A DNA stretch of 64,000 nucleotides, taken from positions 5,597 to 69,596 of the forward strand of contig JALNYL010000006.1 of NCBI GenBank assembly GCA_023229865.1. The letters are read 5' to 3'. Below, in pieces: positions 2,346-19,785 of the stretch. This DNA is from Minisyncoccota bacterium. Its GTDB lineage: Bacteria > Patescibacteriota > Minisyncoccia > Phycocordibacterales > UBA1550. How positions within the stretch are numbered: position 1 is the first letter of the stretch; each line of letters opens with the position of its first letter. The notes beneath the pieces were generated by a model that was not told the origin of the DNA, ran no database searches, and saw only the letters and a program-made list of their open reading frames with translations. A program made the translations under genes and the position numbers.

Positions 2346-2409
2346 ATTGCTACTGGGATTTTATTTCTTTATTCTGTGCCCCTACCTTCGCTTGACCAGA
2401 ACTACCCCG

Positions 2410-2643
2410 TTACCCCAACGACCTCTCCACAATCTCAAACACATCCCGCGACAGCCCCTTGTGGTTGCGCAGCATTTCAGGCGCGGCACGCGCATGTGCC
2501 TGGCGCGTGGCTTCAAGCCTGCGCCAGCGGTCAAAGCAGCGTGCCAGGCGCGCCGCGACTTGGGGGTTGATGCCGTCGGGGTGATATGGGGTCAGCATCG
2601 CAATAGTTTTGGGCAACGACCGGTTTGTATCGGTTGCAGACAT
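2410..2643 (-). CDS. small hypothetical protein (77 aa) downstream of XRE regulator, GC-rich
   Basis: ATG-initiated ORF co-directional with HTH gene; no SD seen. Confidence 0.3.
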   Translation of the reverse strand: MSATDTNRSLPKTIAMLTPYHPDGINPQVAARLARCFDRWRRLEATRQAHARAAPEMLRNHKGLSRDVFEIVERSLG

Positions 2644-2745
2644 CTAGCCAGTGTAGTTCGAATATCCGCTTCGGCCGAGCATCAGACACTATCTGTCTGA
2701 TAAAGATACCGTAGTTTGCACCTTGGTAAGGTCGAGCGAGTCCCC

Positions 2746-3117
2746 CTATTTGCTTGCCAGTAGCGCAACCAAAATGCCCAGCCCGATCAATAACGCGGCC
2801 TTTGCAGCATCGTTATCGTCGGTTGGTTTCTCATTAGGAACCTGAACGCCTTTTCTTGCGAGTTGCTTCGCTAGGTTATCTGCTTCGGACAGGATGCTTT
2901 CGGGAGAATCCCCGAGTGCGTGAGCCAACGAGCGAAGATGTGAGACCGTCAAGGCGGTTTGGCCGGACTCAATGCGCGAGTATGCTGATTGGGTTAACCC
3001 AAGCGCTAGGGCTATCTCCCCCTGACTCTTCTTGCGAAGATCGCGGCGCTTTTGAATAACTTGCCCAATAAGCGCGTTATAGGGAAGAACAGCGGTTGGC
3101 ATTTTAGGGGTTGACAT
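2746..3117 (-). CDS. XRE-family (Cro/CI-type) HTH transcriptional regulator with C-terminal transmembrane tail
   Basis: SQGEIALALGLTQSAYSRIESGQ HTH motif; C-terminal hydrophobic AAKAALLIGLGILVALLASK. Confidence 0.8.
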   Translation of the reverse strand: MSTPKMPTAVLPYNALIGQVIQKRRDLRKKSQGEIALALGLTQSAYSRIESGQTALTVSHLRSLAHALGDSPESILSEADNLAKQLARKGVQVPNEKPTDDNDAAKAALLIGLGILVALLASK

Positions 3118-3162
3118 AATTTACATGTATGCGTATCTTGCATATTCGTCAATTACGAATAT
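3111..3162. promoter_or_regulatory. divergent promoter/operator region: TTGACA(3111-3116)-17bp-TATCTT and perfect 8-bp inverted repeat ATATTCGT-N5-ACGAATAT (3142-3162) immediately upstream of NC-domain gene
   Basis: read directly from sequence; palindrome sits between divergent XRE and NC-domain genes. Confidence 0.45.
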
Positions 3163-3573
3163 ATGCTTATGATACCCAATAACTCCTCTGCCATCAATCC
3201 AATCTCACACCGTGCAGGTACGGTTCTATCTACAAGCCGCTTCCTGTACAGACACCTTGGAATCCTTACTGGTCGTTTCATTAATGGTTTCCCGACCGTC
3301 ATTTCAAACTCCGGGGATGGCGGCATGGTCATAGAAGAATCCCTGTCGCAATTCCAAGGAACAGGAGACCTTCAAGTGGTCGGCTATCTTGGCACACTAC
3401 CTCAAGACGTGGTACTCGCAAGAGCGCAGGCAAAACTCGGAAGCAAATATTCCCTGTTAACTTGGAACTGTGAGCATTTTGTGCGACATGCACACGGCCT
3501 CAAACAAGAAAGCCCGCAGGTGGTTGCGGCGGTGTCATTGTTTGCGCTACTGTTGGTCGTTTCTCGCCTTTAA
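3163..3573 (+). CDS. NC-domain (LRAT/H-rev107, NlpC/P60 superfamily) protein with C-terminal hydrophobic tail
   Basis: catalytic motif YSLLTWNCEHFVRHAHG (NCEHF Cys/His) typical of LRAT-like acyltransferase/papain-fold family. Confidence 0.65.
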   Translation: MLMIPNNSSAINPISHRAGTVLSTSRFLYRHLGILTGRFINGFPTVISNSGDGGMVIEESLSQFQGTGDLQVVGYLGTLPQDVVLARAQAKLGSKYSLLTWNCEHFVRHAHGLKQESPQVVAAVSLFALLLVVSRL

Positions 3574-3623
3574 GTAAGCTCACAGTTCTGGCTGGAACTA
3601 TCTGAGCGCAGACGGAGGACTCA

Positions 3624-5444
3624 ATGAACGCACAAAAAAGTGTTTCAAAGGATTCTAAACGTGTCGGTATCTGGATTCGCGTCTCCACAGAAGACCAGGT
3701 GAGAGGGGAGAGCCCCGAGACGCACGAACGCCGTGCGCGCCTCTACGCAGAAGCCAAAGGCTGGGATGTGGTCGAGGTGTACCGCCTTGACGCTCTCTCG
3801 GGCAAGACCGTCAAGGAATACCCTGAAACAAAGCGCATGCTTGCCGACATCGCCAGCGAACACATCACCGGACTCATCTTCTCCAAGCTAGCCCGACTCG
3901 CTCGAAATACCAAAGAGCTTCTCGATTTCGCTGAGATATTCCGCGACTGCAATGCAGACCTCATTTCACTTGCAGAGTCGATAGATACCTCGACCCCCGC
4001 AGGACGTCTCTTCTACACCATGATCGCAGCTATGGCCCAGTGGGAGCGCGAGGAGATAGCGTCCCGTGTTGCTGCATCAGTCCCCATCCGCGCCAAGATG
4101 GGCAAGCCCTTGGGTGGTCAATCTCCGTTTGGGTATCAATGGAAGGAAGGCAAGCTCATTCCCGATGACGCCGAAGCACCCGTCCGCAAACTCATGTATG
4201 AGCTCTTCCGCGAGAATGAAAGAAAGAAGACCGTAGCGCGACTACTCAACGAACGCGGATATCGCACGCGGAACGGTTCTCTGTTCACCGATACGACCAT
4301 CACCCGTCTCCTTCGTGATCCCACCGCTAAAGGTGTCCGCCGTGCGAACTACACCGTCTCCAAAGACAGCAAGAAATCATGGGGCCTAAAACCTGAAAAT
4401 GAATGGGTGCTTCATGAGGTAGAAGCGATCATTTCCGAAGACCTCTGGAATGAGGTCAATGCAATTCTTGATGCTCAACAAAAAAAGGGAAAGCGTGTTG
4501 CGCGTCAGGTCATCCACCTGTTTGCAGGACTCACGTATTGTGGCTGCGGGCAAAAAATGTATGTGCCATCGAACACTCCAAAGTACGTTTGCTACGACTG
4601 CCGCAACAAGATTCCTGTCGTTGATCTAGAGGGAGTATTTCACGAGCAGATCAAAAACTTTTTCTTCTCTTCGGAGGAAATTGCCGAACATCTATGCAAG
4701 GCAAACGCAACTATTCACGAGAAAGAAGAACTGCTCCAGGTTCTTCTCAACGAACAGAAGAAGCTCACTGCCGAGGTGGACAAGTTGTACGACCTCTACC
4801 AAGGGGGAGCGATTGATAAGGCGGGATTCGGGGCGAAATACTACCCGCTTGCAGAACGAGGGCGTCAGCTTGATGATGAAGTTCCTCAGGCGCAGGCAGA
4901 GCTCGATGTACTGAAAATCTCGCAGCTTTCTCAGGAAGAGATCATCACCGGCGCACGCGATCTTTACTCTCGCTGGCCGGAACTCCCCCAGGAAGAGAAA
5001 CGTCGCATCGTAGAGGCCATCACCGACCGAATCGTCATCCATCCCGACGAAGTAGAGATCAACCTCTTCTATGCGCCGGGAACCTCTACACCATCAGCGG
5101 GAACCCCGTTCACCCCAGAATCCTCAGGGGGCTCATCTACACCCCCTGTAACCCCGTCTTTAAATGGTGGCAGGAAGGCAACGGAACTTCATAGACGCGT
5201 TGCCTTTTTACCATACGTCCGCGTGTGCCTCAAATCCCTGAGAAAGAAGGATTTTGACTTTGAGCCGCGTACCCTGGGCGAGCAAATCAAGCGGCGGCGT
5301 CTGGAACTCTGCCTGTCACAAAAGGAGGTAGGGGAGATGCTGGGTGTAAGCTCGTTTACTGTGCTGAATTGGGAAAAGGGGAAGACAATGCCAAACGAGG
5401 AGGCCATGCCGCGCATTGCATCCTTTTTAAGTGGTGGTGCATAA
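3624..5444 (+). CDS. large serine recombinase (resolvase/invertase catalytic domain + recombinase domain + zinc ribbon + coiled coil) with extra C-terminal XRE-type HTH
   Basis: [12 protein letters not shown]...[10 protein letters not shown] catalytic Ser region, [23 protein letters not shown]...CYDCRNK zinc ribbon; strong SD GGAGGA 5 nt upstream; C-term [31 protein letters not shown]. Confidence 0.9.
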
Positions 5445-5469: not shown

Positions 5470-5781
5470 CTAGAACTCCGGCAAATTGTCGAGATTGTCA
5501 GCGGCCTTCCCGTTATCAACAGTTTTTAAGTACTCCACGCCGTTTACTTTGATGATGTATATGGACTGCCCTTTGATCCACTTCCCCTCACTGCTTTTGG
5601 TGATAGTGACGAAGGTCGTTCCCTTTTTGATAGCGGCGACGATATCTGCGCGCGCGTAGTCGGTTGAAGCACCTATCGTCTCCCCGTTATCTGGGTGAAC
5701 CCTGAGTTTGTCTATGTGCGTATGCGCACTGTTGAACCTAACTGCTGATACACAATAATCTGCCCACTTAGCCATTCCCAC
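5470..5781 (-). CDS. DUF3892-family small protein
   Basis: MAKWADYCVSAVRFNSAHTHIDKLRVHPDNGE...GTTFVT pattern typical of DUF3892 (phage/MGE associated). Confidence 0.55.
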   Translation of the reverse strand: MGMAKWADYCVSAVRFNSAHTHIDKLRVHPDNGETIGASTDYARADIVAAIKKGTTFVTITKSSEGKWIKGQSIYIIKVNGVEYLKTVDNGKAADNLDNLPEF

Positions 5782-5838: not shown

Positions 5839-7008
5839 TCATCTTCCAATGGTCGTAACTACTCCTACAGAAGGCGGGAAGTCACTACCTGATTGCTGTT
5901 TGGAAATAAGTAAAGAAACGAGCGAGAGAGTATGCATCGATCTGTTGGGGCAAGGCTCACTAGTCCCTGTTTTCAATCGAGGGATTACATACGATTCACC
6001 TTCGTAATTAATCTCCACATATGGTTTGCCGTAGGTCTCAGAATCAGATTTCTTGGAACGCGCAAAGAATAATGTTTCGTCCTTGCAGTTTTCGTTTCCA
6101 ATAGCTAGCACTTTGTTTTCTTCTGCAGCACGCAGAATTTCACCGAGATAATAAATTACTCCTTCGGGCGATCGTAAAATAATTCTCGTTGATTTCTCGG
6201 GAATGGATGTGCCTATGGAATTATCAACAACCTCCATCAACTTTGCGACTCCATCCTCATTGGCGCACGACAGAACATATTTGCCTTTACGTTTTGAAGC
6301 AAGCTGCCATTTCCCATTACCAACCTCTTTTAAAAGCATCCCAGCCTTTTGGATTTCAATAAGACTGTTCAGTTGGTCTGGATTAGCAGTACGCATTTCA
6401 ATCTGGGGTCCAATATTGTCTTCGCCGCCCCCCGACTCACTCAATTTGCATTCATGACCACCAATTATCTCTTTTACCTTCTTTTGGAAATCTGAAAATT
6501 GATTAGAGTTTGGATAATTCAGATATGAAGTTGTCTTGCCGTTCGCATTGATTTCTTCAATTTTTGAAACAATGAGGTAAAGGAGCATTTCTTTCGGCCA
6601 CCCTTGCTCCCAAAAGTAAGCAAGGGTTTCCGGCTTGATGGGCGCCAACATTCCTTGGATGAAATCCTTCGAAGTTAGCGGTGCAACTGTATAGACTGGT
6701 GACAGCGAGAAATTTGCTTTAGGTGTGAGTGAATATGCGCCGTTATATCCATTGCCAACCTTTCCGAAAGGCAGTACTAGGTCTCCTGACATTCCATAAG
6801 TTTGGGTCTCTTTCATGTCACTGAGGGTCGTGAAATACATAGGATACCGTTTGCTTGCGCGTACAATATTCAGCAAGAGCATTTCGTTCTGAGCTTTTTC
6901 AAGGGTCTGGTTGTACTCAGTAGCCCCTAAAGCAACCTGCTCTTTGGGGAGCGTTGCACAACCTGTAAGTGCAACGATACTAAGGGACAGCATTGATAGT
7001 TTTATCAT
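5839..7008 (-). CDS. lipoprotein of unknown function (ATG at 7008, SD GAGGA; translationally coupled 9 nt after nuclease stop)
   Basis: signal peptide + lipobox MIKLSMLSLSIVALTGC; track start at 7020 is GTG, ATG at 7008 preferred. Confidence 0.6.
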   Translation of the reverse strand: MIKLSMLSLSIVALTGCATLPKEQVALGATEYNQTLEKAQNEMLLLNIVRASKRYPMYFTTLSDMKETQTYGMSGDLVLPFGKVGNGYNGAYSLTPKANFSLSPVYTVAPLTSKDFIQGMLAPIKPETLAYFWEQGWPKEMLLYLIVSKIEEINANGKTTSYLNYPNSNQFSDFQKKVKEIIGGHECKLSESGGGEDNIGPQIEMRTANPDQLNSLIEIQKAGMLLKEVGNGKWQLASKRKGKYVLSCANEDGVAKLMEVVDNSIGTSIPEKSTRIILRSPEGVIYYLGEILRAAEENKVLAIGNENCKDETLFFARSKKSDSETYGKPYVEINYEGESYVIPRLKTGTSEPCPNRSMHTLSLVSLLISKQQSGSDFPPSVGVVTTIGR

Positions 7009-7016
7009 TTCAATCC

Positions 7017-8075
7017 TCACTCCCTTCTAATAGGCTTATCTACACATGTTGGTCTTGGGGCTCCTGCGAAATTTGAATTCAACTTGGTACTAAGCTCCCA
7101 GCTGTCATCGGAAGTACGACTGCTCTCGACCTGGTTTTCAATGTCATCGGGAAGTTCAGAAAGGAAATCGATTTCCGTACGCCGTTCAATTTCATCAACA
7201 GTCGTGACAAGCTTTGAAAGCTCTGTGCCTGGCTTTGTTTGTTGTGTAAATATGACTGCAAGTACATTGGGTTTCCCGTCGGTCTCTTTTACGATGATCT
7301 TGTAAAACGCGACGGGCAACTCGACACCAGAACAAAGACGGTTGAGCCACACAGGATCAAAGATGGGGCCAGCAGTTACCCATATATTACCGACTTGTTC
7401 CGCGTATGAAGCCTCAAGCATTTCCAGCCCTAGCCACGACTTTTGGTTAAGTGAGGGAAGTTGTGGGGTGATGTTCGACATGAAGTAGGTCTCATTCTGC
7501 GAATCACATCCATGCCGTGAGCCTATGTTATCGCTTGGAGCCATGTGCCCACGGTCGTATCCCGAGCTGTTGTAGCTATCATGAGTGGTGCGAATGAGGG
7601 TGCGATCATCAGTGAGGAATCGAGATAGCCGAGGGCAATCATGCCCTTGATCTGTACCAATCTGATATGCAGACCATAGAGGGTTCGCCTTTGTTTCTGA
7701 ATACCCGACAGCGTACGCCGCGTTTTTGATGTGCGATATTTGATCGCTCACTTTGGAATCATTGGGGAGGCCACCAAAGAACACACTCCGCTCAACCCCA
7801 GGGGGATCGCCGCTGAACAAGCGAACTCGTGATTTGTATACCCACCCAGTCCCCGAACCATTGAGGAGCCGAATCTTATGGTAGCCATTTTGCAGTTTGT
7901 CACTTACGGTAAGCAGATAGATTTGCTGACTGAGCTTCTCCGGATGGACTGACTCAAGGATTGTTGCATTGCGGTCGGGGGATGCGTAGATGTTAGCGCT
8001 ACGCTTGACCTCAACATAGTTTGCCCAGGCGCAGGCTGGGAATATACACATCAGGATAAGCAGTGCCCGTCGCAT
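7017..8075 (-). CDS. secreted DNA/RNA non-specific endonuclease (Serratia NucA/Endonuclease_NS family) with N-terminal signal peptide and extra N-terminal domain
   Basis: SGYDRGHMAPSDN active-site (DRGH) motif, downstream N..TPQ region; signal peptide MRRALLILMCIFPACAWA; SD AGGAG before ATG 8075 (track start 8081 is GTG). Confidence 0.85.
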   Translation of the reverse strand: MRRALLILMCIFPACAWANYVEVKRSANIYASPDRNATILESVHPEKLSQQIYLLTVSDKLQNGYHKIRLLNGSGTGWVYKSRVRLFSGDPPGVERSVFFGGLPNDSKVSDQISHIKNAAYAVGYSETKANPLWSAYQIGTDQGHDCPRLSRFLTDDRTLIRTTHDSYNSSGYDRGHMAPSDNIGSRHGCDSQNETYFMSNITPQLPSLNQKSWLGLEMLEASYAEQVGNIWVTAGPIFDPVWLNRLCSGVELPVAFYKIIVKETDGKPNVLAVIFTQQTKPGTELSKLVTTVDEIERRTEIDFLSELPDDIENQVESSRTSDDSWELSTKLNSNFAGAPRPTCVDKPIRRE

Positions 8076-8130
8076 AACCACTCCTTCTATCTATGCTCGA
8101 TATACAAAGTTGAGTGATGCCGTGCCTGAC

Positions 8131-8550
8131 CTAAATTGTTTTTTCTAAATCCAGTTTCATCTTTGCGCTTTTAATCTCTCGTTCAGCCTTTGAGAAATCT
8201 TCATGTTCTTGCTGAGCCGAACTTTTCCAGTTCAGGAAATCCCGGAATAGCTTGATTGATCCTTTGCTTCCACCAGACACAACCCCTGCTGTAATGAGGT
8301 AACCCACGAGTGTGTTTTTCTCCTGGCTGAAGATCACCGCCATGGCATCGAATTGGTACAGGTACACAATTACAAGAGATGTGATGATGACAATGGGCTC
8401 CTTGAAGCCCTTGTTCTTCATTTTATCCAAAACCAAACGTGACTCGAATATTGGGGACAGGGCGCGTTCGACGAAGAGCGAGAGCAAAACGATTGTCCCG
8501 AGTACCTCTAAGACAACATCTCCCTTGATTCCAAAAAGTAGCGGGTCCAT
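8131..8550 (-). CDS. small membrane protein, unknown function (downstream of rSAM maturase; possible export/immunity role)
   Basis: ATG with SD GGGAGA; three hydrophobic segments. Confidence 0.5.
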   Translation of the reverse strand: MDPLLFGIKGDVVLEVLGTIVLLSLFVERALSPIFESRLVLDKMKNKGFKEPIVIITSLVIVYLYQFDAMAVIFSQEKNTLVGYLITAGVVSGGSKGSIKLFRDFLNWKSSAQQEHEDFSKAEREIKSAKMKLDLEKTI

Positions 8551-8652
8551 TCAGTATCTCCCTGTCGTGTTTTAGATTCTTCACTTTACTACAGCGTTTT
8601 AGAGCCCGTAAACAAGCCCCTCAATATACTGTCAATGTAATGTGTTCCCGAA

Positions 8653-10029
8653 TTAGCGCCCATCTGATGAATTAATTAATGCAGCCTCGGCATCTGAAAT
8701 CAGAATCGCGCGGCCAATCTTGCCCACATATTTTTCTATGTTGAATCGCACAGCATCACAGGGAGTCAGCGACTGATCCATGAAAATTCTAGGGTGAGCA
8801 CATCCCCCCATACAAAGAGGCAAAACATTGCAACTCTTGCATCGCTCATTTTCAAACGGAGAATAATCTGCCCATTGCTTATCGATATTGGAAGCAGACG
8901 AGGGCAATGGTTTATAACCCTCTGAAATATGCCCTGACTGCTCAGTAACAGCCCCTACGCTATGCCAGCAGCGACTGATTGACCCATCTGGCCCGATGAC
9001 AATCATCCTGTGCGCAGAGGCTGAACATGCTGCGGATTTAGGAGTTAACTTCCGCGCCAACATTTGCATGCCGTTATCGCTTACTGATAGTGCAAGATTT
9101 TCAAGTGTCGCGTATTCGCTCCGCCCCAGGCTGCATCCATGACCACAAGGGCCATCAGAAGGATTCCGCTTGCCGTCTGAGTTGGTTGCATACCCAGCAT
9201 CTCCCTCGTAATCATAGACGTGGGACAACACAACGGTTGGCACAGAGTTGGCGCGAAGATCATCCAAAATATTTTCAACTTCGTGCGCATTCTTGTTCGT
9301 TACATTAATCCGCACTTGAATATCCAGGTGATCTTTGGATTCCAGAAGATTCTTGTATATCCTGGAAGGCTCACCGGTGCTTGTTCGCATCCCCCGCAAC
9401 CCAGTTTGCTCTTGAAGGGAGTCAAAGCATATCTGAACATTTCTCATGCCAAGCTTGTCCAGTTCCTTCGCGGTGTCTTGGTCGAGCAGTGCTCCATTGG
9501 TGACCATAGTAACGTCGAGTTTACCGCGAGCACTTCTGACAACCTTGCGGATATCCTCAGTCAATTTGATTATTTGCGCCTTACGCAATAATGGCTCTCC
9601 GCCAAACCAGGTAACCAAGAAGCGCCGCCAGCCAAACTGGATGCACGATTCAATGTACTGCAACAATTGCTCCTCCACCTCTGGGCGCATTATGGCACTC
9701 GTGCGATACGACGCTTGAAAGCAATATTCACACGAATAATTGCAGGCGAGTGTGGGAACAAGGGTCAGGTGGAGCGTGTCTCCTCCGCGCGAAGCAAGAA
9801 AGGTTTTCTTGATGAGCTCGATTTCGTCGTCTTTGTGAAGGAATCCCATGCGGCGCAATTGTCGCGGATCGATAGCCTTTTTTAGATCACCATCCCCACG
9901 AAGAATTTCTGCATTTTCTGACGAGAGAAGAGCGAAGGTTCCTGTGCGTGCGTTATATCCAATAACACCCTCATCTCGCTCAATGAAATAATTGTAGCGC
10001 GAACGAACATAGTCGAATCGCTTAGACAT
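8653..10029 (-). CDS. radical SAM / SPASM-domain peptide-modifying enzyme (anSME/ranthipeptide-sactipeptide maturase-like)
   Basis: CNYSCEYC (CxxxCxxC) cluster; C-terminal SPASM cysteines C...CWH and CKSCNVLPLCMGGCAH; N-terminal ~100-aa peptide-recognition-like extension. Confidence 0.85.
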   Translation of the reverse strand: MSKRFDYVRSRYNYFIERDEGVIGYNARTGTFALLSSENAEILRGDGDLKKAIDPRQLRRMGFLHKDDEIELIKKTFLASRGGDTLHLTLVPTLACNYSCEYCFQASYRTSAIMRPEVEEQLLQYIESCIQFGWRRFLVTWFGGEPLLRKAQIIKLTEDIRKVVRSARGKLDVTMVTNGALLDQDTAKELDKLGMRNVQICFDSLQEQTGLRGMRTSTGEPSRIYKNLLESKDHLDIQVRINVTNKNAHEVENILDDLRANSVPTVVLSHVYDYEGDAGYATNSDGKRNPSDGPCGHGCSLGRSEYATLENLALSVSDNGMQMLARKLTPKSAACSASAHRMIVIGPDGSISRCWHSVGAVTEQSGHISEGYKPLPSSASNIDKQWADYSPFENERCKSCNVLPLCMGGCAHPRIFMDQSLTPCDAVRFNIEKYVGKIGRAILISDAEAALINSSDGR

Positions 10030-10064
10030 GGATCGCCCCCGCTACCGTATTACTGACTTGCTGA

Positions 10065-11693: not shown

Positions 11694-12671
11694 CTATTGA
11701 GCCAATCTCGCACGCTCCACGACTTGCTTGTACTGTGCCTTGTAGACCTCCGTTGGCATTCTCCAACCGAGCGCTTCTGCCTTGTCGTACCAAAGTCGAC
11801 TGTTACGATCCAAGAAAGCGTAATTCGACCGCTCTTCCAGCGGAATCAAGTCTGGTCTGGGATATTTGTTGATGAAACGGTCTTTGATCAACCTCGCGTA
11901 GGATGCGCCTTTGTGAAGCATGGCATTAACTGCTTTTGGCGAATACTCCAGCACCATATCAGAAGCCTCAATGGCCTTTTCGTATTGGTGCTTGTGCATG
12001 TAATGCTCGATCAGCGTATCTGTCATTAAAGCAACAGTTTCTTTTTTGCTTAGGGGGCGGAGATAGACGCCATTTGCGATGGCTTCGTCAGTCATGGGCA
12101 TTTGCTGCCTAAGCCACACATCTCGTGCCGTGTTTGCCCCGCTGGTCGCTTCGAGATTAATCCAGCCCTCATTGTTGGCTTTGTACTTCACGAATATGTG
12201 TTCGGGCGCAGTAGCGGCAGTCACTTCGAGGCCAAGCCGTTGCCCAAGGATGATGAAGAGGAAGGGCATGGAGACGCAATTGCCTTTTCTGGACTCCAAA
12301 TAGCTGGGCAGCAATTTATGGCTTATGTCTTCCCCATAAGGATCTGCCAAGTCGTACTGGTAGGGGCGCTGTCCATTCCATGGGTTGGCGGTATAAAGAT
12401 ACGTTCTTAAAACCTGTAGTTTTTCTGGGCTGGATGCATTGAATAGAAGCCCCATTTGGATGTTTGCCACCATCGAATCAATTTTTTTGAGGTTGGCCAT
12501 AATATCAATACTTGGGTCGATCATTTTGTCGATGGTCAGTTTTGCTTTGCCAAGATCAATCTGGTTTTCCGGCAGTCTTAGCATTGCTTGAATTGGACTG
12601 AGATCGTTGGCGAACGCAGCACTGCTTGGGACGGCCATAATCAGCAACAGAATCAGAAAAATACACCGCAT
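11694..12671 (-). CDS. secreted transglutaminase-like (papain-fold Cys-His-Asp) superfamily protein
   Basis: signal peptide MRCIFLILLLIMAVPSSAAFA; RKGNCVSMPFLFIILGQRLGLEV ... PEHIFVKY ... WINLEAT motifs resembling transglutaminase-like core; track start 12827 is TTG. Confidence 0.5.
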   Translation of the reverse strand: MRCIFLILLLIMAVPSSAAFANDLSPIQAMLRLPENQIDLGKAKLTIDKMIDPSIDIMANLKKIDSMVANIQMGLLFNASSPEKLQVLRTYLYTANPWNGQRPYQYDLADPYGEDISHKLLPSYLESRKGNCVSMPFLFIILGQRLGLEVTAATAPEHIFVKYKANNEGWINLEATSGANTARDVWLRQQMPMTDEAIANGVYLRPLSKKETVALMTDTLIEHYMHKHQYEKAIEASDMVLEYSPKAVNAMLHKGASYARLIKDRFINKYPRPDLIPLEERSNYAFLDRNSRLWYDKAEALGWRMPTEVYKAQYKQVVERARLAQ

Positions 12672-12844
12672 GCCTTGCCTGTCCAAAATGCAAACCAGAA
12701 GAACCCTACAGCAAGAACTGTTTTTCGACAATATGCCATTGGGCGCATTAAGGGGAAGCTTTCTCTCGGAGGCCATCGCAGGGATTGAAGCTGGTAAATG
12801 GAGATTTAATGTCTCCACGAGGTGCAACCAGATGTGCCCATGCT

Positions 12845-13129
12845 TTAGCCAAAGCGCTTCCAGTTATCAATGAGCCACTTCTTCACATTGGCGTGACTCC
12901 GCGTATCACCTGGTAGATGCTTCTTTATCAAGCGCTCTACCTTTACTCCAGAGTCTTTTTGTTTTAAATCACATGCGGTTGCGAAGCTATTAATAAATGC
13001 CAAGACCTCGTAACCTTCATTCCGATTCAGGAACGTACTATCCGGTTTGCCGGTGACCTTGGGATCATCTGGAGCAATGGCCGTCCATGAGTAGTCGAAT
13101 TCCAAATCGCTTTTTTGAAGAAGTGGCAT
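12845..13129 (-). CDS. hypothetical protein (94 aa)
   Basis: ATG with strong SD AGAGGA; no recognisable motif. Confidence 0.4.
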   Translation of the reverse strand: MPLLQKSDLEFDYSWTAIAPDDPKVTGKPDSTFLNRNEGYEVLAFINSFATACDLKQKDSGVKVERLIKKHLPGDTRSHANVKKWLIDNWKRFG

Positions 13130-13263: not shown

Positions 13264-15993
13264 TTACTGCTTCTCAGCTTTTGAGAGCGACCGCGCAATT
13301 ACCTGCGCTACCGCGCTACGTCGTTCGGCGATGTCAGAAGGGGAGAGTGCCTGACTCGTCACCTTGACCTTGTACCCACGCACGGTACTTTCTGTCGTCG
13401 TTGGCGTCGTTGAAACAACTTGGTCGAGGTGTTCGATCAAATCCTCTGGGCTGAAATACCGCACCTTGTCTCGCACTGCTTCATCCAGGTTCGCGGGAAT
13501 GAACCGTGCAAGCGATTTCAAGTGGCGCGCATTCGTGCTGACAACCAATACCTCTTCGTATCCAGCTGAAAGACACTTCTCAACGTTCTGGAGCTCCCAG
13601 TCTCGTCCCGTGGTCACGGATATTTCCACGGCGATCTTGCGTTCTCCCTGCGAGAGGTGAACATCCACCCGTCCCGCACCATCAAGGATGGGTTCTTCGA
13701 TGGATGCCTTGAATGCGCGTTCTTCTGCAAGCTGCTTTACGAGTTGCGCAAGGTACTTGTGCTGCTTCCCACCACCCCCTTGTTCCTTCACCTCATATTT
13801 CGGGCTGGGGGTAGTGGTACGGAATACACGCGGCGCGGGTAGCTCAGGGTAGGGGGAAGAGCCTGCGCCGAGGTCTTCGTGTACAGGCTCCCCCTGGGGC
13901 GCTGGTGCAATCCCTTTCGGTGCCACCATCTCCTTCTTCTCAATCCGCCTGGCTACTGGTGGGACGATCTCAATCTGCGGAATCCGTGCCTCCACGCCAT
14001 ACACTACGCGATTCCTCTCGATGAGCTCTGCATACTGGATATCGTCAAGCACTGGCTCCCGTTCTACCACCCCGAGAGGAATGGAAACGGAAAGCGCTCT
14101 GGCCGTGAAGTTCTTCACATAGCAGGCGAACTCCGTATGGTTCCCGTATTTCTTTTGCTGCAATAGGAAATTAGCATCAGTACGGAACTCTGCATCAAGT
14201 GAGTTTGCATCCTTACTACTTACGCCACCGGCGAATTTAATGGAGGTACTAGCAAGGACACTTGCGCGAAGCGCTGGGCTCAGTTGGTCGAGGTTCTGGT
14301 GACTAAAGACCAGGCCAATCTTGTATTTCCGCGTCTGGTTCACCATGCGGTCGATATTCTCGTCAAAATAGTCCTCAGCCTCGTCGATATATGCAAAGGT
14401 GGGGGTTCGCTCGTGTGCGGGCAATATCGCGCGTTGTATGGCCGCCTGCGCGATCAGGGACACGATGAATCGGCCAAATATTGAAGAACCTTCGTGCCCC
14501 AAGAAATCCTTGGCCGTATTTACTAAAATGATCTTGCCCTCCTGGGTCAGCTTGAATAGGTCAACCTTGTTCTTGGGGTGGCTGAGCATTCGTTCGAGGG
14601 TCGTGTTACTGAGTACGCCCCAGAGTCGTGCCGTGATCTGTTTTTTGTTCTCGGCGAACTGCCGATCAAAAAACTGCGTCGCAAAGAATGTGTGGGCAGT
14701 ACCTGTGAGCTTTTCCATGTAGGGGCGGTACTTCTCTCCGTTCATCATGAGCTCAAGGAGTGTATGAATGGTGGCATTAGGGATTTCCATCATGAGGCGG
14801 GCAAGGTAGCGGAATATCACCCCCTGCCTTTGGGTGAGCTCTGCGCCAAGGAGTGCCCCGAAGAAGTACTCGTAGGTCTCGACTGTTGCGTTGAGAATCA
14901 TTTCTCTGTCTTGCGCTGAAAGCGTACCCATCCGCGCCCGGTCGAAGTCGAACATATTGAGTCCAACAGGATGCTCTACATCAGTCGGGTCGATGAGGAC
15001 AAACCGATCCGCAAGACTGTTTCCCTCACTTGGGTCAAAGAGCTTCAGGTGTGCAATGGTGCGGATCATGTCTCCCTGGCTATCCATCACGATGATCGAC
15101 CTCCCATCCTCCTGTGCCTTCACGAGGTCATGATGAATGAGGAACTGGAGTAGTTGTGTTTTGCCGTGCCCTGATCCCGCAACGATATGCGTGTGTTCAA
15201 ATCGCGCCGGGAAGGGGATAGCAAAGGGAAGTGTGTAGTAGAAAAAAGAGCGAAGCGGTGTTCCCTGAAGATACCCGTCTATGAGGTACTCAGGTGCGGT
15301 GCTCTTGTTGTCGCCCGGCATGATGATCTTCTGCGCCGTACCGTGCCGCCCGCCCGGCGGAACCCCCGACATGAGCCCTACGTTTCCTTCAAGTCTTTCC
15401 CGGAGGGGATCGAAGAGATGCGCATTCACCACGTCAGCATCGTAGAACGTGAGGATGAGCCGGTCGAGTACTTCGGGCAGATTATCGCAAAGGTCCCCTA
15501 TGTGCGCCTCGGGAAGGGTAACGGCGTTGTCAGAAGCAACTCCGTTTGCTCCGATGTCGGTAAAAGCCGAGAGCGGAAAATATTCGAGCATCCCCGAGAA
15601 CAGCCATACCAGCTTATCCCGCCAGATGACGGTCAGTCGTTCGTGGTCGTGGAGGTAATGCAGGTGCCGTTTCCAAATTGCACGAAGTTGAATTCCTTCC
15701 TCAATCGTGAGTTTGGGGATTGTGGAGCGCGGGGGAAGTTCAATAATGAGCCCATCGAAGGACAGGAGACTCCTCACGGTATCGTAGAGCGCATTCCCGA
15801 GAGGAGTCGAGGGGGTGACCCCGCGCCGTTCGCAGACCTCAAAGATGATTTCAAGAATGAAGTCACCGATCTTATCTTCATCTGAAAACGGCGCGCAAGC
15901 CTGAGCATCAACTACCTGCTCATAGAGGGTAGTCATGTCTTTGATCTCGCGGCTACGCGCCGAACCACGAAACCAGTTCTTCCAGTTCGACAT
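13264..15993 (-). CDS. large FtsK/HerA-superfamily P-loop ATPase, TraG/TraD/VirD4 coupling-protein-like core (no obvious TM helices) with ~270-aa N-terminal and ~200-aa C-terminal extra domains
   Basis: Walker A AGSGHGKTQLL, DSQGD after P-loop, Walker B AYIDEAEDYF, FSHQNLDQL; translationally coupled to upstream small gene. Confidence 0.65.
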   Translation of the reverse strand: MSNWKNWFRGSARSREIKDMTTLYEQVVDAQACAPFSDEDKIGDFILEIIFEVCERRGVTPSTPLGNALYDTVRSLLSFDGLIIELPPRSTIPKLTIEEGIQLRAIWKRHLHYLHDHERLTVIWRDKLVWLFSGMLEYFPLSAFTDIGANGVASDNAVTLPEAHIGDLCDNLPEVLDRLILTFYDADVVNAHLFDPLRERLEGNVGLMSGVPPGGRHGTAQKIIMPGDNKSTAPEYLIDGYLQGTPLRSFFYYTLPFAIPFPARFEHTHIVAGSGHGKTQLLQFLIHHDLVKAQEDGRSIIVMDSQGDMIRTIAHLKLFDPSEGNSLADRFVLIDPTDVEHPVGLNMFDFDRARMGTLSAQDREMILNATVETYEYFFGALLGAELTQRQGVIFRYLARLMMEIPNATIHTLLELMMNGEKYRPYMEKLTGTAHTFFATQFFDRQFAENKKQITARLWGVLSNTTLERMLSHPKNKVDLFKLTQEGKIILVNTAKDFLGHEGSSIFGRFIVSLIAQAAIQRAILPAHERTPTFAYIDEAEDYFDENIDRMVNQTRKYKIGLVFSHQNLDQLSPALRASVLASTSIKFAGGVSSKDANSLDAEFRTDANFLLQQKKYGNHTEFACYVKNFTARALSVSIPLGVVEREPVLDDIQYAELIERNRVVYGVEARIPQIEIVPPVARRIEKKEMVAPKGIAPAPQGEPVHEDLGAGSSPYPELPAPRVFRTTTPSPKYEVKEQGGGGKQHKYLAQLVKQLAEERAFKASIEEPILDGAGRVDVHLSQGERKIAVEISVTTGRDWELQNVEKCLSAGYEEVLVVSTNARHLKSLARFIPANLDEAVRDKVRYFSPEDLIEHLDQVVSTTPTTTESTVRGYKVKVTSQALSPSDIAERRSAVAQVIARSLSKAEKQ

Positions 15994-16002: not shown

Positions 16003-16386
16003 CTAGTATTCGAGAGCTTCCTCGCCTCCAAACTGGGATGCTGCCGTGAGTACAGCCTTGAAGGTTTTGCAGGCTTCCTTGATCTGATCTTCTACGGCGA
16101 GCATTTCGACAATGTCTTTGCACTCGATCTGCTTACCCTTCGAGAGGTCATTCACCGAAAGGGAGATATTGAGAGCCTTGAGAGCGAAACGGCTTGCTGC
16201 ACCAAGGAGGCCGCTGCCAGGATCAATAACCTTGTCCCGCTCGTAGAGCATGGTTTCGCCAAGTTTGTATTTCTTGATGTGTTCTTGTTCTTCGTCGGAT
16301 AGCTCGGCACGTACATCAAGGATGAATGAGACTTTGCCCATCCCCATCATTCCGGCTTTTTGATCCCTGCGCAGCAATACTTTCAT
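16003..16386 (-). CDS. hypothetical protein (127 aa), first gene of the ATPase operon
   Basis: ATG with SD AGGAGA; stop 9 nt before the ATPase start. Confidence 0.5.
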   Translation of the reverse strand: MKVLLRRDQKAGMMGMGKVSFILDVRAELSDEEQEHIKKYKLGETMLYERDKVIDPGSGLLGAASRFALKALNISLSVNDLSKGKQIECKDIVEMLAVEDQIKEACKTFKAVLTAASQFGGEEALEY

Positions 16387-16622
16387 GGAGTTTCTCCTGT
16401 AAGGTTAGTTGAGAACTGCACAACATATGCGTTTCCTCCTAACCCAGGAAGGTCTCCATCAAGAGATGCTTCGGGTGACTCCACCTGCATCCGGTAATCG
16501 GTGTGGCGGTATTGGTATTTGTGGAGCGCTCACGAGGAGAACTCCGCCCTGCATTATGCGCTTGCTTCTTAGGTCCACTCAAGAGGAAGTCAGGGATTCA
16601 AAAATATGCGTAGAAAATGAAA

Positions 16623-16653
16623 CAGGGTTCTCGTCGTAATGACGAGAACCCTG
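16623..16653 (-). terminator. perfect 13-bp stem / 5-nt loop hairpin (CAGGGTTCTCGTC-GTAAT-GACGAGAACCCTG); T-rich tract follows on minus strand
   Basis: seen in sequence; lies in ~1-kb non-coding stretch between the two ATPase operons. Confidence 0.4.
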
Positions 16654-17359
16654 CCTATTCCGAAATGACCTAGTCATACATCGAGCGCCATGCCCAGCCT
16701 CCCGTCGGCTCACGAACTTCTGTTCGTCGTCGCCGGTCTTTCCCTGATCGCCGATTACAACATGGCATGTTGAAATTGTCGCATCTGCAGATACGTGCTT
16801 CTGCTGCGATGTCCCCAGGTGTTTTTTTCGTGTCCATAACTATCTCCTTATCCGCTCTCGCGGGTTAGATTTAGAAACCGAAAGGAACTGAATTCATGAG
16901 GGTCGCAGATCGGATTTAGTGCCATCTCTTGCAAAAGATTTGCGGAAATGCTTTACTAATCCAGTCCAGCATTACGACCATCGCTTTACTACGCTTTGAA
17001 GCAGGGAGCCTCCTTTCTTGGCTCATCAGTAGGTTGGACACTGGGACCTGTTAGCGCAGGTTCCACCAAAGCCCGCCAAAACATCGGCGGGTTTTTCTTT
17101 GCATATTCAAACTGTTCCATAAATTTCTTTCGTTTCCGATGGCAAAGAAAATGCCCGCAATAATCGCAATTTTTAAAATTCGCAATTGTGGCGGGCATTA
17201 TCGCGGCCTCAAATGGCCTTCGATCTACTCCGCTTACTTCAACCGGTGCTGCTCATCTGCGTATGTTGCATCCTGTAATTGATTGCCCCGCTTCTGCGGG
17301 TGAATGTGCTGATCGAATATTAGCCAACTTCCTGCAAACATACAACCCATGCATGGGTA

Positions 17360-18520
17360 TTAATTCCTCACCGTCGTCGCACTAAACGGCTTACTCGGTG
17401 CGCCGTCGATCATGAGCTTGAGATATATGTCATGGTTCGGAATGTTCACCAAGTCCTCAGGTGAAAACACCGGCTCGAATTCCCGTGCAAGCGTCCGCGC
17501 ATCCTCTGCTCCTACGCGAAAGGCAATGAGCGTACCGACATTGCCCAGGACTGCATGCATCACCTCTCCTTCAAGTTGGTGAAGGTGCTGATTGGCAAGC
17601 ACGAGCCCAAGTTTGAATTTGCGAAGTTCCGACACAGTGTTCGCCACAGAAAGCGTCGTGAAGTTCTGGAATTCATCGAGGTGAAGATAAAACGGCCGAC
17701 GTGAATGTTCAGGTAGTTCGCTTCTGCTGAAGGCAGCAAGGTTGAGTGTGGTTACCAAGAGCGCCCCCAAGAGATTTGCGCTGTCGTCTCCCAATCGCCC
17801 CTTGGCGAGATTCACGATGAGGATCTTCCCTGAGTCCATGATGCGGCGAAAGCTGAGATCAATTGGTGGATTCGTAAGGATGCGGAAAAGCCTTGGGTCA
17901 GCAAGGAACGCGCCGATCTTGTTCTGGATAGGGGAGATCATCTCCTGGCGGTAGCGAGGGTTGTAGTCTTTGAACTCGTGTTCCCAAAATTCGCGCACCT
18001 GCACGTTGGAAATATTTTTCACTACGTTGTGTCGATACGCAGTGTCGCTAAACATGCGCAAAATGTCGGGGAGCGTCGCATCGCCGTACTCAATCAGAGC
18101 GTAGAGCGTGTTCCTGAGCACATGCTCCATGCGCACACCCCAAGCATCATCAAAGAGTTTCTTGAGCGCCTCCATGAGTCCTGAGACGGCAAGTGGCACC
18201 TTGTCCTTCCGCACCTGTCTGAGGGGGTTGTAGCCATACGGCTGATCGATATCAGCGGCATCCAGGTAGACGAGGTCGTCAGATCGCTCCTGGGGAATCC
18301 TGGCTATGAGACGCTCCGCCATATCGCCGTGCGGATCAATGACACACACTCCGTGCCCGTGTGCAATGTCCTGCTCTGCCAATGTCTCCATGAGCGTCGT
18401 CTTGCCGGTGCCGGTTTTTCCGATGACGTACAGGTGAAACAAGCGATCATCACTCTTGATGCCGAACCGCACCTTCTTTCTTCCGTTGGTCTCCGCAAAA
18501 TAGCTGATGTTGTTCTTCAT
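17360..18520 (-). CDS. HerA/DUF87/TrwB-like P-loop ATPase (386 aa)
   Basis: Walker A VIGKTGTGKTTL followed by VIDPHGD; Walker B YLHLDEFQNF. Confidence 0.65.
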   Translation of the reverse strand: MKNNISYFAETNGRKKVRFGIKSDDRLFHLYVIGKTGTGKTTLMETLAEQDIAHGHGVCVIDPHGDMAERLIARIPQERSDDLVYLDAADIDQPYGYNPLRQVRKDKVPLAVSGLMEALKKLFDDAWGVRMEHVLRNTLYALIEYGDATLPDILRMFSDTAYRHNVVKNISNVQVREFWEHEFKDYNPRYRQEMISPIQNKIGAFLADPRLFRILTNPPIDLSFRRIMDSGKILIVNLAKGRLGDDSANLLGALLVTTLNLAAFSRSELPEHSRRPFYLHLDEFQNFTTLSVANTVSELRKFKLGLVLANQHLHQLEGEVMHAVLGNVGTLIAFRVGAEDARTLAREFEPVFSPEDLVNIPNHDIYLKLMIDGAPSKPFSATTVRN

Positions 18521-18657
18521 GCAGAGAGCCTACCCAGCCTTGCGCAATATCACACGGCGCGGATACGTGCCGTCTTGGCACATTCTCCCGTCGTGAGATT
18601 TTGTTTCGTATGGTGAACTATATAGGTCGGCTTGTTCTTTATCGAAAGGAAACCGAC

Positions 18658-19224
18658 ATGACCATGAAACGATTATCAAACCAAGAGCTACTCACCATGC
18701 TTATCGGCGAAGGGAAAGCTAAGCAGTTTTGTCGTACCGAACTCGTATCGCTTGTATTTGCAGAAGAGGGGAGCGAGGACTATGTACAAGAACTCGGTGT
18801 AGCACGCGAGCTCGTCAAGCGCTCCCTTGAAGAAACGCTTTGCAGGGGGAATGCTCTTTTGTCTCCCCAGATTGTTGCCGACTATCTCAAGGTCATCTTG
18901 AATGGCCTCGGACATGAAGTGTTTGTAGCACTCTTTCTGGATGCTCAGCATCGCCTCATTGCCGCTGAAGAGCTCTTTCGGGGAACGCTCACACAAACAT
19001 CGGTGTATCCACGCGAGGTGGTGAAACGGGCGCTCTATCACAATGCTGCAGCCGTGATCTTTGCTCACAACCACCCCTCGGGAGTTTCCGAACCAAGCAC
19101 TTCGGACGTGATGCTCACTGGGGCACTAAAGCAGGCCCTCTCGCTTGTGGACGTAAAAGCGCTCGATCATCTTGTGGTAGCAGGGAGTGACGTAGTGAGC
19201 CTTGCAGAAAGAGGGCAAGTGTGA
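18658..19224 (+). CDS. radC: RadC-like JAB/MPN domain protein (UPF0758)
   Basis: JAMM motif HNHPSGVSEPSTSD; helix-hairpin-helix-like N-terminus; SD AAGGAAA before ATG 18658 (track start 18601 is TTG). Confidence 0.85.
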   Translation: MTMKRLSNQELLTMLIGEGKAKQFCRTELVSLVFAEEGSEDYVQELGVARELVKRSLEETLCRGNALLSPQIVADYLKVILNGLGHEVFVALFLDAQHRLIAAEELFRGTLTQTSVYPREVVKRALYHNAAAVIFAHNHPSGVSEPSTSDVMLTGALKQALSLVDVKALDHLVVAGSDVVSLAERGQV

Positions 19225-19283
19225 GGGAAGGGAACATTGATAGCCGTGAAGAAATTCACGGCTATTTTCTTTGGGCGTTCTTA

Positions 19284-19299
19284 GTATAATCTGCGAATG
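19284..19299 (+). promoter_or_regulatory. perfect TATAAT (19284-19289) 7 nt upstream of the IHF-like ATG with no SD: probable leaderless transcript
   Basis: seen in sequence. Confidence 0.35.
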
Positions 19300-19614
19300 A
19301 CTCGCTCTGACCTCATCGCCCGCTTAGCCGAACTGCACCCTCGATTGCTTGCCAAGGATGCAGAACTCGCGGTCAAAGTAATCATTGATTCCATCTCTGA
19401 CTCACTAGCACATGGTGGTCGGGCAGAGATTCGTGGCTTCGGTAGTTTTGGGTTGAATTACCGACCGCCGCGCAAAGGTCGGAATCCGAAAACAGGGGCA
19501 GGTGTAAATATTCCCGCGAAGTATTCGCCGCATTTCCGGGCAGGGAAGGAATTGAGGGAGCGGGTGAATCCTTTAGACGATCAGACTAAATCCCCAGTGA
19601 ATGGGGAAAAGTAA
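19297..19614 (+). CDS. integration host factor beta / HU-family DNA-binding protein
   Basis: [15 protein letters not shown]...[47 protein letters not shown] is the classic IHF-beta/HU arm signature. Confidence 0.85.
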
Positions 19615-19785
19615 AACACTGAAGAAGCCTCAGCAAAAGCTAGGACTCAATTCTAATTTGGAAAGTATATTTTTAATCAAACATGGGAGTTAATCTAAAA
19701 TATGGCAACAACTGAATATTTATAGTATATATATACCACATATTTAGTCAAGTTAATCAAGTATTGAAACGATTGCCTGTTTGCC

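Follow-up and report, generated by a model that had tools for sequence, protein, structure and literature searches.

The DNA analysed here, referred to as the window, is a stretch of 64,000 nucleotides from a Minisyncoccota bacterium of the Candidate Phyla Radiation (CPR) (assembly GCA_023229865.1, contig JALNYL010000006.1, positions 5,597 to 69,596). Its left part contains, from about 2.4 to 19.6 kb, a probable integrative element, i.e. a block of genes that includes a large serine recombinase and two ATPases. Genes were called from Pfam, NCBIfam, PADLOC and PHROG scans, and the window proteins were mapped onto 87 related loci (related loci and contigs are given here by L numbers). The domain scans bore out most of the gene identities proposed in a first-pass annotation made from the sequence alone, namely a recombinase with an appended helix-turn-helix (HTH), an XRE regulator, an NC-domain protein, a DUF3892 protein, a nuclease, a radical S-adenosylmethionine (rSAM) protein, a transglutaminase-like protein, the ATPases, RadC and an HU/IHF-type protein. 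Its division of the block into minus-strand cargo and plus-strand maintenance genes does not hold, since both ATPases, the XRE regulator and the DUF3892 protein are encoded on the minus strand and the NC-domain protein on the plus strand.

The recombinase gene (3624..5444, plus strand) encodes 606 residues with a resolvase catalytic domain (PF00239, residues 16–161, E = 1.5e-30) in which the RVS serine motif is present, a Recombinase domain (PF07508, E = 2.2e-17) and, at residues 555–602, a C-terminal XRE-type HTH (HTH_3, E = 1.1e-7); a zinc ribbon (Zn_ribbon_recom) scores 20.8 bits, under the cut-off of 25.3. The protein matches the integrase family phrog_95 (E = 4e-108) and is predicted to be the integration/excision enzyme of the block. 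To its left lie genes for an XRE-family HTH regulator (2746..3117, minus strand; HTH_3, E = 1e-12), common to L086 at 72% nucleotide identity, and for an LRAT/NlpC-P60 (NC-domain) protein (3163..3573, plus strand; PF04970, E = 3.6e-10), also found in L086; both proteins have a C-terminal hydrophobic anchor, and in L087 an LRAT protein comes after the recombinase. To its right, a small DUF3892 protein is encoded on the minus strand (5470..5781; PF13031, E = 2e-12; phrog_32719, E = 2e-42), with a 75% identical homologue in L057.

Beyond the cargo genes lies a module of two ATPases and a small open reading frame (ORF), all encoded on the minus strand. The larger ATPase (A909; 13264..15993, 909 residues) has a P-loop core of the TrwB/VirD4/HerA type, with weak Pfam matches to TrwB_AAD_bind and DUF87, and its family profile finds TrwB (PDB 1e9r, 2e-6) as the best structural match, followed by DotL, DptH and HerA. 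It is 55–74% identical to its counterparts in L009, L010 and L087, and 41–45% identical to plasmid proteins annotated as 'T4SS conjugative DNA transfer family', T4SS being the type IV secretion system. Members from different phyla are conserved over their full length, including an N-terminal domain and a C-terminal module in which D777 and E790 are invariant and K806 nearly so; judged from this motif alone, the C-terminal module looks like a PD-(D/E)xK nuclease fold. The idea that A909 combines a coupling protein and a Replic_Relax relaxase in one fusion found no support in BLASTP or Pfam, and its C-terminus is not similar to the Replic_Relax protein encoded beside its plasmid homologue. The small partner ORF p127 (16003..16386, 127 residues) has no family match and is 69–73% identical in L009, L010 and L087, while homologues with 30% identity are found upstream of the large ATPase on IMG/VR contigs. 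The second, soluble ATPase (A386; 17360..18520, 386 residues) is TrwB/TraD/VirD4-like (TrwB_AAD_bind, E = 7e-12, with DUF87, TraG-D_C and TraD/CedD-like NCBIfam matches); its family profile matches TrwB at 2e-7 as well as DotL, and it shows 69–80% identity to its homologues in CPR loci. Both ATPase families are thus most similar to the coupling proteins TrwB and DotL, and next to HerA-type helicases. Between p127 and A386, this copy alone has a 970-bp stretch without a substantial ORF (16387..17359), while the distance between the two flanking genes is at most about 100 nt in L009, L010 and L001. It contains a strong terminator-like hairpin with a 16-bp stem (16620–16656, minus strand), and neither an Rfam match nor a homologue could be identified for it.

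The block is completed on the plus strand by a RadC-like JAB-domain protein (18601..19224; PF04002, E = 1.5e-41), which occupies the same position in L009 (59% identical), L016 and L022, and by an IHF-beta-type DNA-bending protein (19297..19614; NCBIfam IHF-beta equivalog, 131 bits versus a cut-off of 115) as the last backbone gene. In L085 a gene with 72% DNA identity to the latter lies about 1 kb upstream of the recombinase gene, which is where the IHF-beta gene of the window would sit in a circularised block. An Rfam scan of the block found no RNA, even at E <= 1.

This backbone is not peculiar to the window. The recombinase has 5725 relatives, the best 120 of which are 63–87% identical, and 359 relatives were found in a collection with one genome per species. 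The best 80 of these 359 include other Patescibacteria, i.e. Yonathbacteria (78% identity), Saccharibacteria (66–69%) and Paceibacteria (57–63%), as well as Pseudomonadota (up to 86%), Acidobacteriota, Bacteroidota, Planctomycetia, Armatimonadota, Dehalococcoidia, Desulforudis and more. Identity within the recombinase/ATPase backbone is 57–86% between CPR and more than 15 other phyla. The suggestion in the first-pass annotation of a mobile block around a large serine recombinase is therefore upheld by the recurrence of the same backbone in other Patescibacteria contigs and in many phyla. The genes shared among the 87 mapped loci are those for the recombinase, both ATPases, p127 and RadC, and less often the XRE/NC-domain and IHF genes; in about 32 of the 87, both ATPase genes lie at most 10 kb from the recombinase gene. 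The order recombinase, cargo, A909, p127, A386, with or without RadC, is also found in L009, L010, L001, L005 and L087. In many non-CPR phyla the gene for the large ATPase abuts the recombinase gene upstream on the same strand; in the copies with an HTH-tailed recombinase (the window, L009, L010, L001, L005, L087 and L079) the ATPase module is inverted, and a cargo slot lies between it and the recombinase. A tblastx comparison of the loci with the entire window was informative only for the strongly shared blocks, with too much noise elsewhere.

One chromosomal relative is L010, a compact copy of about 7.5 kb that lies mid-way in a 594-kb Saccharibacteria contig and consists of the recombinase, one ORF and the ATPase module only. 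Its right flank contains host sugar-biosynthesis genes and its left flank is accessory (Endonuclease_1, an RTX/VWD protein and IS1595); the backbone has 44–47% GC in a neighbourhood of 32–40% GC. Since L010 sits this deep in a Saccharibacteria contig, CPR chromosomes host the recombinase/dual-ATPase family, and the composition of the backbone drifts toward that of the host. Across the family, GC content is about 45–55% whatever the host, and in proteobacterial loci it is below that of the chromosome; as it does not depend on the host, it says little about the donor. In L001, a 265-kb Patescibacteria contig, a gene for an OmpA-like outer-membrane beta-barrel protein (2277–2786) was found about 7 kb upstream of the recombinase gene; such a protein is a diderm trait and may be a further sign of proteobacterial cargo in a CPR genome.

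A megablast search of the block against PLSDB gave no match. Plasmid homologues of the ATPases are annotated as T4SS coupling-type proteins; one is encoded beside a Replic_Relax protein and another beside a recombinase. A gene pair for ThiF and a multiubiquitin protein lies near a large-ATPase homologue both in L176, the 35-kb gammaproteobacterial Methylomagnum plasmid pRS11DPr5, and in L087, and this shared pair suggests that the backbone circulates as plasmids too, besides integrated copies. No paper on the recombinase plus dual-ATPase family or on its presence in CPR was found in the literature, which is not proof that the family is undescribed.

The origin of the block is indicated by a gene fragment at its left edge. 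The last 55 codons and the stop codon of an aminopeptidase N gene (pepN), with the frame intact and 65% GC, are found on the minus strand at 2423..2587, and the encoded peptide corresponds to positions 266–319 of 320 of Pfam DUF3458_C (E = 1.2e-17). Homology to pepN starts abruptly at the residues DGINPQV (around nt 2587), continues through the stop codon (around 2423) and ends about 12 nt past it (around 2410); the sequences downstream of the stop codon all differ among the pepN contigs compared. The remnant shows 63–91% amino acid identity to pepN ends on proteobacterial-type contigs, with 89% nucleotide identity to L175, and the best-matching contigs have proteobacterial-type flanking genes (MipA, MlaD, GlgC, PAS-GGDEF), one of them coming from a Rhodocyclaceae metagenome-assembled genome. 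Other short PepN matches, considered as further truncated genes, turned out to be mostly full genes cut by contig starts, leaving only P0128 and P0139 as real fusions or remnants.

In the lineage of these contigs, the 3' end of pepN is a hotspot of island insertion. In L171 the last 94–143 nt of pepN are duplicated (1–230 and 6640–6910) around a 6.6-kb island with two toxin-antitoxin pairs (MazE/PIN and YoeB/Phd), AbiEi/AbiEii and a trypsin-TPR protein; identical sequence follows both pepN tails, so that the contig may be circular or contain a tandem array. The same downstream sequence is shared by L170, with an intact pepN, and L172, with an island followed by a 94-nt tail, and on this basis L170 represents the empty and L172 the occupied site. 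On proteobacterial contigs, defence islands directly follow the pepN tail, as the PDC-S46 gene described below does in the window. No pepN tail was found in the other copies of the recombinase element among the related loci compared, and the tail therefore looks like a donor flank and not like something that belongs to the element itself.

A neighbour-joining tree of the first 490 recombinase residues places the window with L086, L006 (Pseudomonadota), L085 and L007 (Gallionellaceae), while the remaining CPR recombinases are found elsewhere in the tree and are polyphyletic. Because the recombinase nests among Pseudomonadota copies and because of the pepN remnant, the donor signal reads as proteobacterial (Gallionellaceae/Rhodocyclaceae-like) and not as actinobacterial, and the pepN fragment fixes the direction of at least one transfer as proteobacterium to CPR. 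The first-pass annotation had proposed a recent acquisition from a high-GC donor, for instance an actinobacterium, and had suggested a recombinase phylogeny as a check. The foreign origin is supported by that phylogeny and by pepN; the high-GC or actinobacterial donor is not, the relatives and the remnant both indicating Pseudomonadota, and GC is no evidence of the donor, given the GC range of the family in any host.

Base composition separates the block less sharply than was first thought. It had been described as having 55–60% GC against 40–48% elsewhere, with GC3-rich codons (high GC at third positions); measured values are 49.8% for the block versus 46.3% for 19,661–64,000, and only three of 34 500-bp bins of the block exceed 55%. 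Only the recombinase and the two ATPases show a modest rise (53–54% GC, GC3 0.58–0.65), compared to 48–51% GC and GC3 0.45–0.57 in host core genes (aminoacyl-tRNA synthetases, TsaD, FtsZ, FtsA, HisRS, RNase J and a release factor), and the cargo genes have 40–49% GC. The composition steps themselves were correctly placed: in 300-bp bins GC rises from 38.7% to 59.3% at about 2380, so that the recombinase gene does start 1.2 kb inside the left step, and in both 1-kb and 300-bp windows it falls again at about 19,615. The apparent jump is mainly a contrast with AT-rich adjoining genes (38% GC on the left and 40% on the right).

Tetranucleotide usage, proposed as a further check, separates the block from the core better than GC does, with r = 0.84 to the core at 28.4–64 kb compared to 0.92 +/- 0.01 for a null of the same length, i.e. 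a deviation of about 9 SD. The flanks are atypical as well (r = 0.445 for 1–2379, and r = 0.77, under the null minimum, for 19,621–25,900), and the cargo is closer to 19.6–25.9 kb (r = 0.80) than to its own backbone. With the block and both flanks atypical, the whole of 1–25.9 kb, to the left of the tRNA-Arg gene at 25,981, looks accessory, while from 26 kb onward the window contains tRNAs and housekeeping genes. The limits first given for the block (2380–19,660) thus stand as composition steps and are not supported as ends of the insert: the pepN breakpoint at about 2588 falls within the block, and the 2380 step may just be the seam between two accessory modules.

The left flank is occupied by a plus-strand gene with 38% GC (144..2345) for a 733-residue AAA/SMC-like ATPase, a full-length match to PDC-S46, which PADLOC lists as a candidate defence gene (E = 2.7e-239, 715 of 719 profile positions). 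This gene is convergent to the pepN remnant, its nearest relatives are only 61% identical and scattered widely, and it is accessory DNA outside the recombinase element, perhaps part of a neighbouring island. About 40 nt of GC-rich DNA (2380..2422) separate the GC step from the pepN stop codon. The region from the pepN breakpoint to the XRE gene (2588..2745), for which none of the relatives shows homology, is a candidate for an end of the element. On the right, an AT-rich spacer (19615..19785) connects the IHF-beta gene, across the GC step, to an ORF of 277 residues (p277). This is the first of four right-flank ORFs (19786–23562; 277, 175, 457 and 296 residues) for which, joined as one query, no homologue could be detected among 5.8 billion proteins; their own sequences are also missing from that collection, though other proteins of the same contig are in it, and near-identical ORFs were called in an independent assembly.

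This right junction is spanned by the Logan contig L193 (run SRR18595301), which is 100% identical to 18,312–23,948 of the window. Its end at 23,948 falls within a terminator-like palindrome (about 23,935–23,962) directly before the first of three plus-strand copies of a structured repeat of about 110 nt (23975–24085, 26250–26362 and 28268–28380). The copies share the conserved blocks CCGCAG, GAGGYGGGG, CACTTAYG and CTTAGTGAYTYGTG and form two hairpins, RNAalifold predicting 34 pairs, of which 12 have compensatory changes among just the three copies. The tRNA-Arg and tRNA-Phe genes are each followed at a short distance by one of the copies. The repeat has no Rfam match at gathering thresholds and may be a so far undescribed small RNA or repeat of the CPR genome; as one copy lies at 23.9 kb and the others among host genes at 26.3 and 28.3 kb, it links the right flank to the core.

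Other repeats were observed in the same region. The tRNA-Arg(CCT) gene (25981–26055) is preceded by a perfect 42-nt palindrome (25935–25976) and followed, after 10 nt, by 33 nt that repeat its 3' end in inverted orientation (26075–26107, 85% complementary); these may act as a terminator or be left over from an earlier integration site. A 31-nt direct repeat with 87% identity (28024–28054 and 28106–28136), with one copy extending over the 5' end of tRNA-Phe (28115), represents a partial tRNA duplication 82 nt upstream, possibly an old att remnant. Finally, a 35-nt direct repeat with 83% identity (24776–24810 and 25324–25358), with only two copies in the window and 0.02 expected by chance, is located upstream of two adjacent minus-strand genes, encoding an RNase_T-like exonuclease and a 165-residue ORF, and is probably a shared promoter or operator.

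The cargo slot between the recombinase and the ATPase module (5839..13129, all on the minus strand; Pfam and NCBIfam scans) is unique to the window copy. It encodes a lipoprotein (5839–7020, recognized by eye from its N-terminus), a secreted nuclease of the Endonuclease_NS family (7017–8081), a membrane protein, TM139 (8131–8550), and an rSAM/SPASM maturase (8653–10029) of the kind acting on ribosomally synthesized and post-translationally modified peptides (RiPPs), with a 59-residue Cys-rich ORF upstream of its gene as the candidate RiPP precursor (10065–10244). Next come p162 (10593–11081), a signal-peptide protein and possible immunity protein, the gene of which overlaps that of p215 (11066–11713), a 215-residue toxin with a HExxH motif and the terminal RHS core motif, in agreement with the earlier Rhs-CT assignment, a SirB1/transglutaminase-like protein (Transglut_core2; 11694–12827) and p94 (12845–13129), which has a PHROG match. 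The lipoprotein, TM139, p162, p215, the transglutaminase-like protein and p94 have no homologue in the 87 related loci, and the nuclease and rSAM proteins have weak family-level matches there (25–30%). Signal or lipoprotein signals could be recognized in five cargo proteins, so that the earlier statement that the cargo is largely exported holds, with the signals judged by eye and not by a predictor.

Secreted non-specific nucleases are found in or beside four HTH-tailed elements and belong to two unrelated families, namely Endonuclease_NS (window 7017–8081, L001 8375–9229) and Endonuclease_1 (L087 11436–12176, L010 8801–9691). Their recurrence is compatible, as circumstantial evidence, with CPR cells scavenging nucleotides. 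L085 and L086, the closest relatives, have defence-type cargo instead (Prok-E2/ThiF/JAB, patatin, PemK), and L087 also has defence-type cargo. In a PADLOC scan of ten proteins, five block proteins matched, only weakly (mad8/HerA, viperin-fold), and no known defence system could be identified among the block cargo.

Taken together, these observations lead us to the view that the region from about 2.4 to 19.6 kb is probably a copy of a widespread integrative and probably mobilizable element in a Pacebacteria (CPR) chromosome, recently derived from a proteobacterium. Its backbone would comprise the large serine recombinase with its HTH tail, the XRE regulator, IHF-beta, RadC and the two TrwB/VirD4-like ATPases, putatively hexameric, with their small partner; the cargo carried here would consist of a non-specific nuclease, a lipoprotein, an Rhs-type metallopeptidase toxin with its likely immunity protein, a SirB1/transglutaminase-like protein and an rSAM-modified peptide. 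Gene content, recurrence of the family, its spread across phyla, the pepN remnant and the right junction are observed, and from them we infer excision, transfer route, ATPase role and cargo function along the following lines. The recombinase, aided by IHF, would excise a circle, and the coupling-protein-like ATPases would pass the excised DNA to a transfer channel, which could be a resident T4SS or one provided by a helper element; alternatively, the ATPases might pump double-stranded DNA themselves, like TraB of Streptomyces. Patescibacteria possess T4SSs (PMC12857230), and mobilisation through a channel that is not its own would be the most economical model.

Several observations weigh against this interpretation. 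No relaxase, Rep_trans or replication family was found in Pfam and NCBIfam scans of the block proteins (an oriT was not searched for), and mobilisation is for this reason a conjecture. The pepN remnant implies that the block is not a cleanly excised element, as at least about 165–210 bp of donor flank are included; the last insertion may accordingly not have been mediated by the recombinase, or the acquired piece may extend past the left end of the window. Since donor flank came along, the host may instead have taken up a larger DNA fragment in the final step. No att sites could be recognized: comparison of the two ends gave direct and inverted matches no better than those of shuffled sequence (the best inverted match is 16/24, with a null maximum of 17), and neither end has non-coding homology to the relatives L085, L086 and L087. 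No empty site was found in a metagenome scan with the left-flank gene, the relatives of which are at most 61% identical and never paired with right-flank genes. The first-pass annotation had named a lack of both empty-site and junction evidence as grounds for rejecting an insert; empty and att sites are indeed lacking, yet the right junction was reproduced independently, and confirmation by independent assembly covers the right junction only. Neither flank can be assigned to any taxon, with the PDC-S46 gene on the left and four ORFs without homologues on the right, both compositionally atypical. An exhaustive nuclease search returned 8104 matches with at best 50% identity, none of which assigns the cargo to a taxon. 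Finally, the closest relatives show only 84–87% protein and 78–80% DNA identity, and the actual donor is unsampled.

Some of these points would also fit an assembly or binning chimera, in which part or all of 1–19.6 or 1–25.9 kb is a proteobacterial pepN hotspot array, made up of a PDC-S46 defence island and a serine-recombinase element, joined to a CPR contig or, in a softer form, in which the assembler switched genomes within a shared element and the left junction alone is false. The pepN tail and IHF-beta are proteobacterial features, the defence-type islands right after pepN tails on proteobacterial contigs resemble the arrangement with PDC-S46 here, the recombinase nests among Pseudomonadota copies, all of 1–25.9 kb is atypical in composition, the four right-flank ORFs lack homologues, and independent assembly support lies at the right junction and not at the left. 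We nevertheless regard a chimera as unlikely: 18,312–23,948 is exactly reproduced by an independent assembly, so the right junction is no single-assembler artefact, copies of the genome-specific structured repeat tie the region at 23.9 kb to the host genes around 26.3 and 28.3 kb, the element family occurs deep inside CPR contigs of 594, 265 and 185 kb, and a join at the tRNA would need a k-mer common to two phyla. There is a similarly small chance that the mobile unit is larger, the recombinase element being one module of a composite region of at least 26 kb that is bounded on the right by tRNA-Arg and includes PDC-S46 and the ORFs without homologues, with the GC steps as module seams. The atypical composition of 1–25.9 kb, the resemblance of the cargo to 19.6–25.9 kb rather than to the backbone, the partial inverted copy of its own 3' end after tRNA-Arg at 25,981, the position of the pepN tail between two accessory modules, as in proteobacterial arrays, and the extra conserved modules, absent here, upstream of the recombinase in other relatives all agree with such a region. 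Nothing beyond 19.6 kb is common to any relative, however, the structured repeat at 23.9 kb looks host-like, and tRNA genes are not usual targets of serine recombinases. A larger unit is in any case compatible with an integrative element of proteobacterial origin and does not exclude it.

It is quite improbable that the block is the remnant of an integrated plasmid or phage-like element with an ATPase module for plasmid transfer or genome packaging. Homologues of the ATPases and p127 do occur on viral-classed contigs of 20–57 kb and on plasmids of 35 and 136 kb, and DUF3892, p94, RadC and the recombinase match PHROG families; against this, scans of the block revealed no capsid, portal, tail, terminase, replication initiator or partition gene, the ATPases best match coupling proteins, and the compact L010 consists of the recombinase, one ORF and the ATPase module only. 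That there is no insert at all, the genes being native to a replicon of heterogeneous GC content, seems to us highly improbable: the GC difference is small (49.8% versus 46.3%, with core genes up to 48–51%), but the tetranucleotide deviation of about 9 SD, the truncated proteobacterial gene at the edge, the backbone common to unrelated phyla at 57–86% identity and the unique cargo all speak against it.

A more specific form of the integrative-element interpretation, which we put forward tentatively and with some doubt, is that the element is a direct shuttle between Gallionellaceae/Rhodocyclaceae-like Proteobacteria and CPR bacteria that live attached to or next to them, which uses dual ATPases without a relaxase or pore of its own. 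In CPR it would repeatedly acquire secreted non-specific nucleases together with surface or antagonism proteins and so serve as a lifestyle cassette. If so, the pepN scar would be a direct record of a proteobacterium-to-CPR transfer, and from donor scars of this kind one could deduce which bacteria are the hosts of groundwater CPR lineages. The genomes of CPR bacteria are tiny, the cells rely on other cells and are mostly uncultured, and the sources of their genes have largely been inferred statistically. Genomic islands are common among groundwater Patescibacteria, and published surveys describe mostly within-phylum exchange, without describing the vehicles (PMC12455944). Such a vehicle is offered by the serine-recombinase element with its two TrwB-like ATPases, one copy of which bears a fragment of a proteobacterial chromosome. 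If the junctions hold, this would be a testable inter-phylum DNA route into CPR, host or partner taxa of CPR could be proposed from donor scars, and the recombinases would represent a serine recombinase family of broad activity, distinguished by its unusual HTH tail.

Compared to known mobile systems, the block is not an integrative and conjugative element, an actinomycete integrative and conjugative element (AICE) or a prophage. It contains no mating-pair formation (MPF) genes, similarity to VirB4 being P-loop-level only and far under the cut-off. With the Streptomyces-type AICEs it shares the small size of an integrative element and a possible model of self-transfer, in which a single translocase of the FtsK/HerA superfamily operates without a T4SS; the AICE protein TraB is FtsK-like, however, and accompanied by Rep and Spd, whereas the ATPases of the block match TrwB, DotL and HerA and not FtsK, and Pfam scans of the block detected no Rep or Spd families. 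A PHROG scan of ten block proteins, together with Pfam, found no capsid, portal, tail or other structural genes; the PHROG matches are to integrase, regulator, RadC and families of unknown function, and the weak matches of the ATPases to the large terminase (E = 4e-4 and 9e-7) are consistent with shared P-loop similarity. The pepN tail resembles those flanking the AbiE and toxin-antitoxin islands in L171–L174, but in the window the tail alone is present, without a gene body, and the breakpoint lies 55 codons before the stop, compared to about 31 in L171/L172 and about 45 in L175. The recombinase has the same domain architecture as CcrB/CcrC, XisF and phiC31-type recombinases and its best NCBIfam similarities are to CcrB, CcrC and XisF, but it scores far below the equivalog cut-offs, has an appended XRE HTH and is found with other partner genes.

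Among the established classes are integrative mobilizable elements (IMEs) that encode a coupling protein of their own besides a serine recombinase (PMC5704250; PMC5357655), and the block works like an IME, although it falls outside the class in the strict sense, as no relaxase was found and the insertion is not delimited by an empty site. The likeness lies in the serine-recombinase module, VirD4/TrwB-type ATPase(s), the lack of mating-pore genes, a size of 8–17 kb and adaptive cargo. The integration/excision module that IMEs have of their own is represented in the block by the recombinase, XRE regulator and IHF-beta, and their optional VirD4/TcpA-type coupling protein by A386. The block differs from IMEs in having no relaxase recognisable in family scans, two coupling-protein-like ATPases with a conserved small ORF instead of one coupling protein, and extra conserved N- and C-terminal domains in the large ATPase. 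Also, its recombinase is unusually conserved and spread over more than 15 phyla, whereas known examples of IMEs are mostly from Firmicutes.

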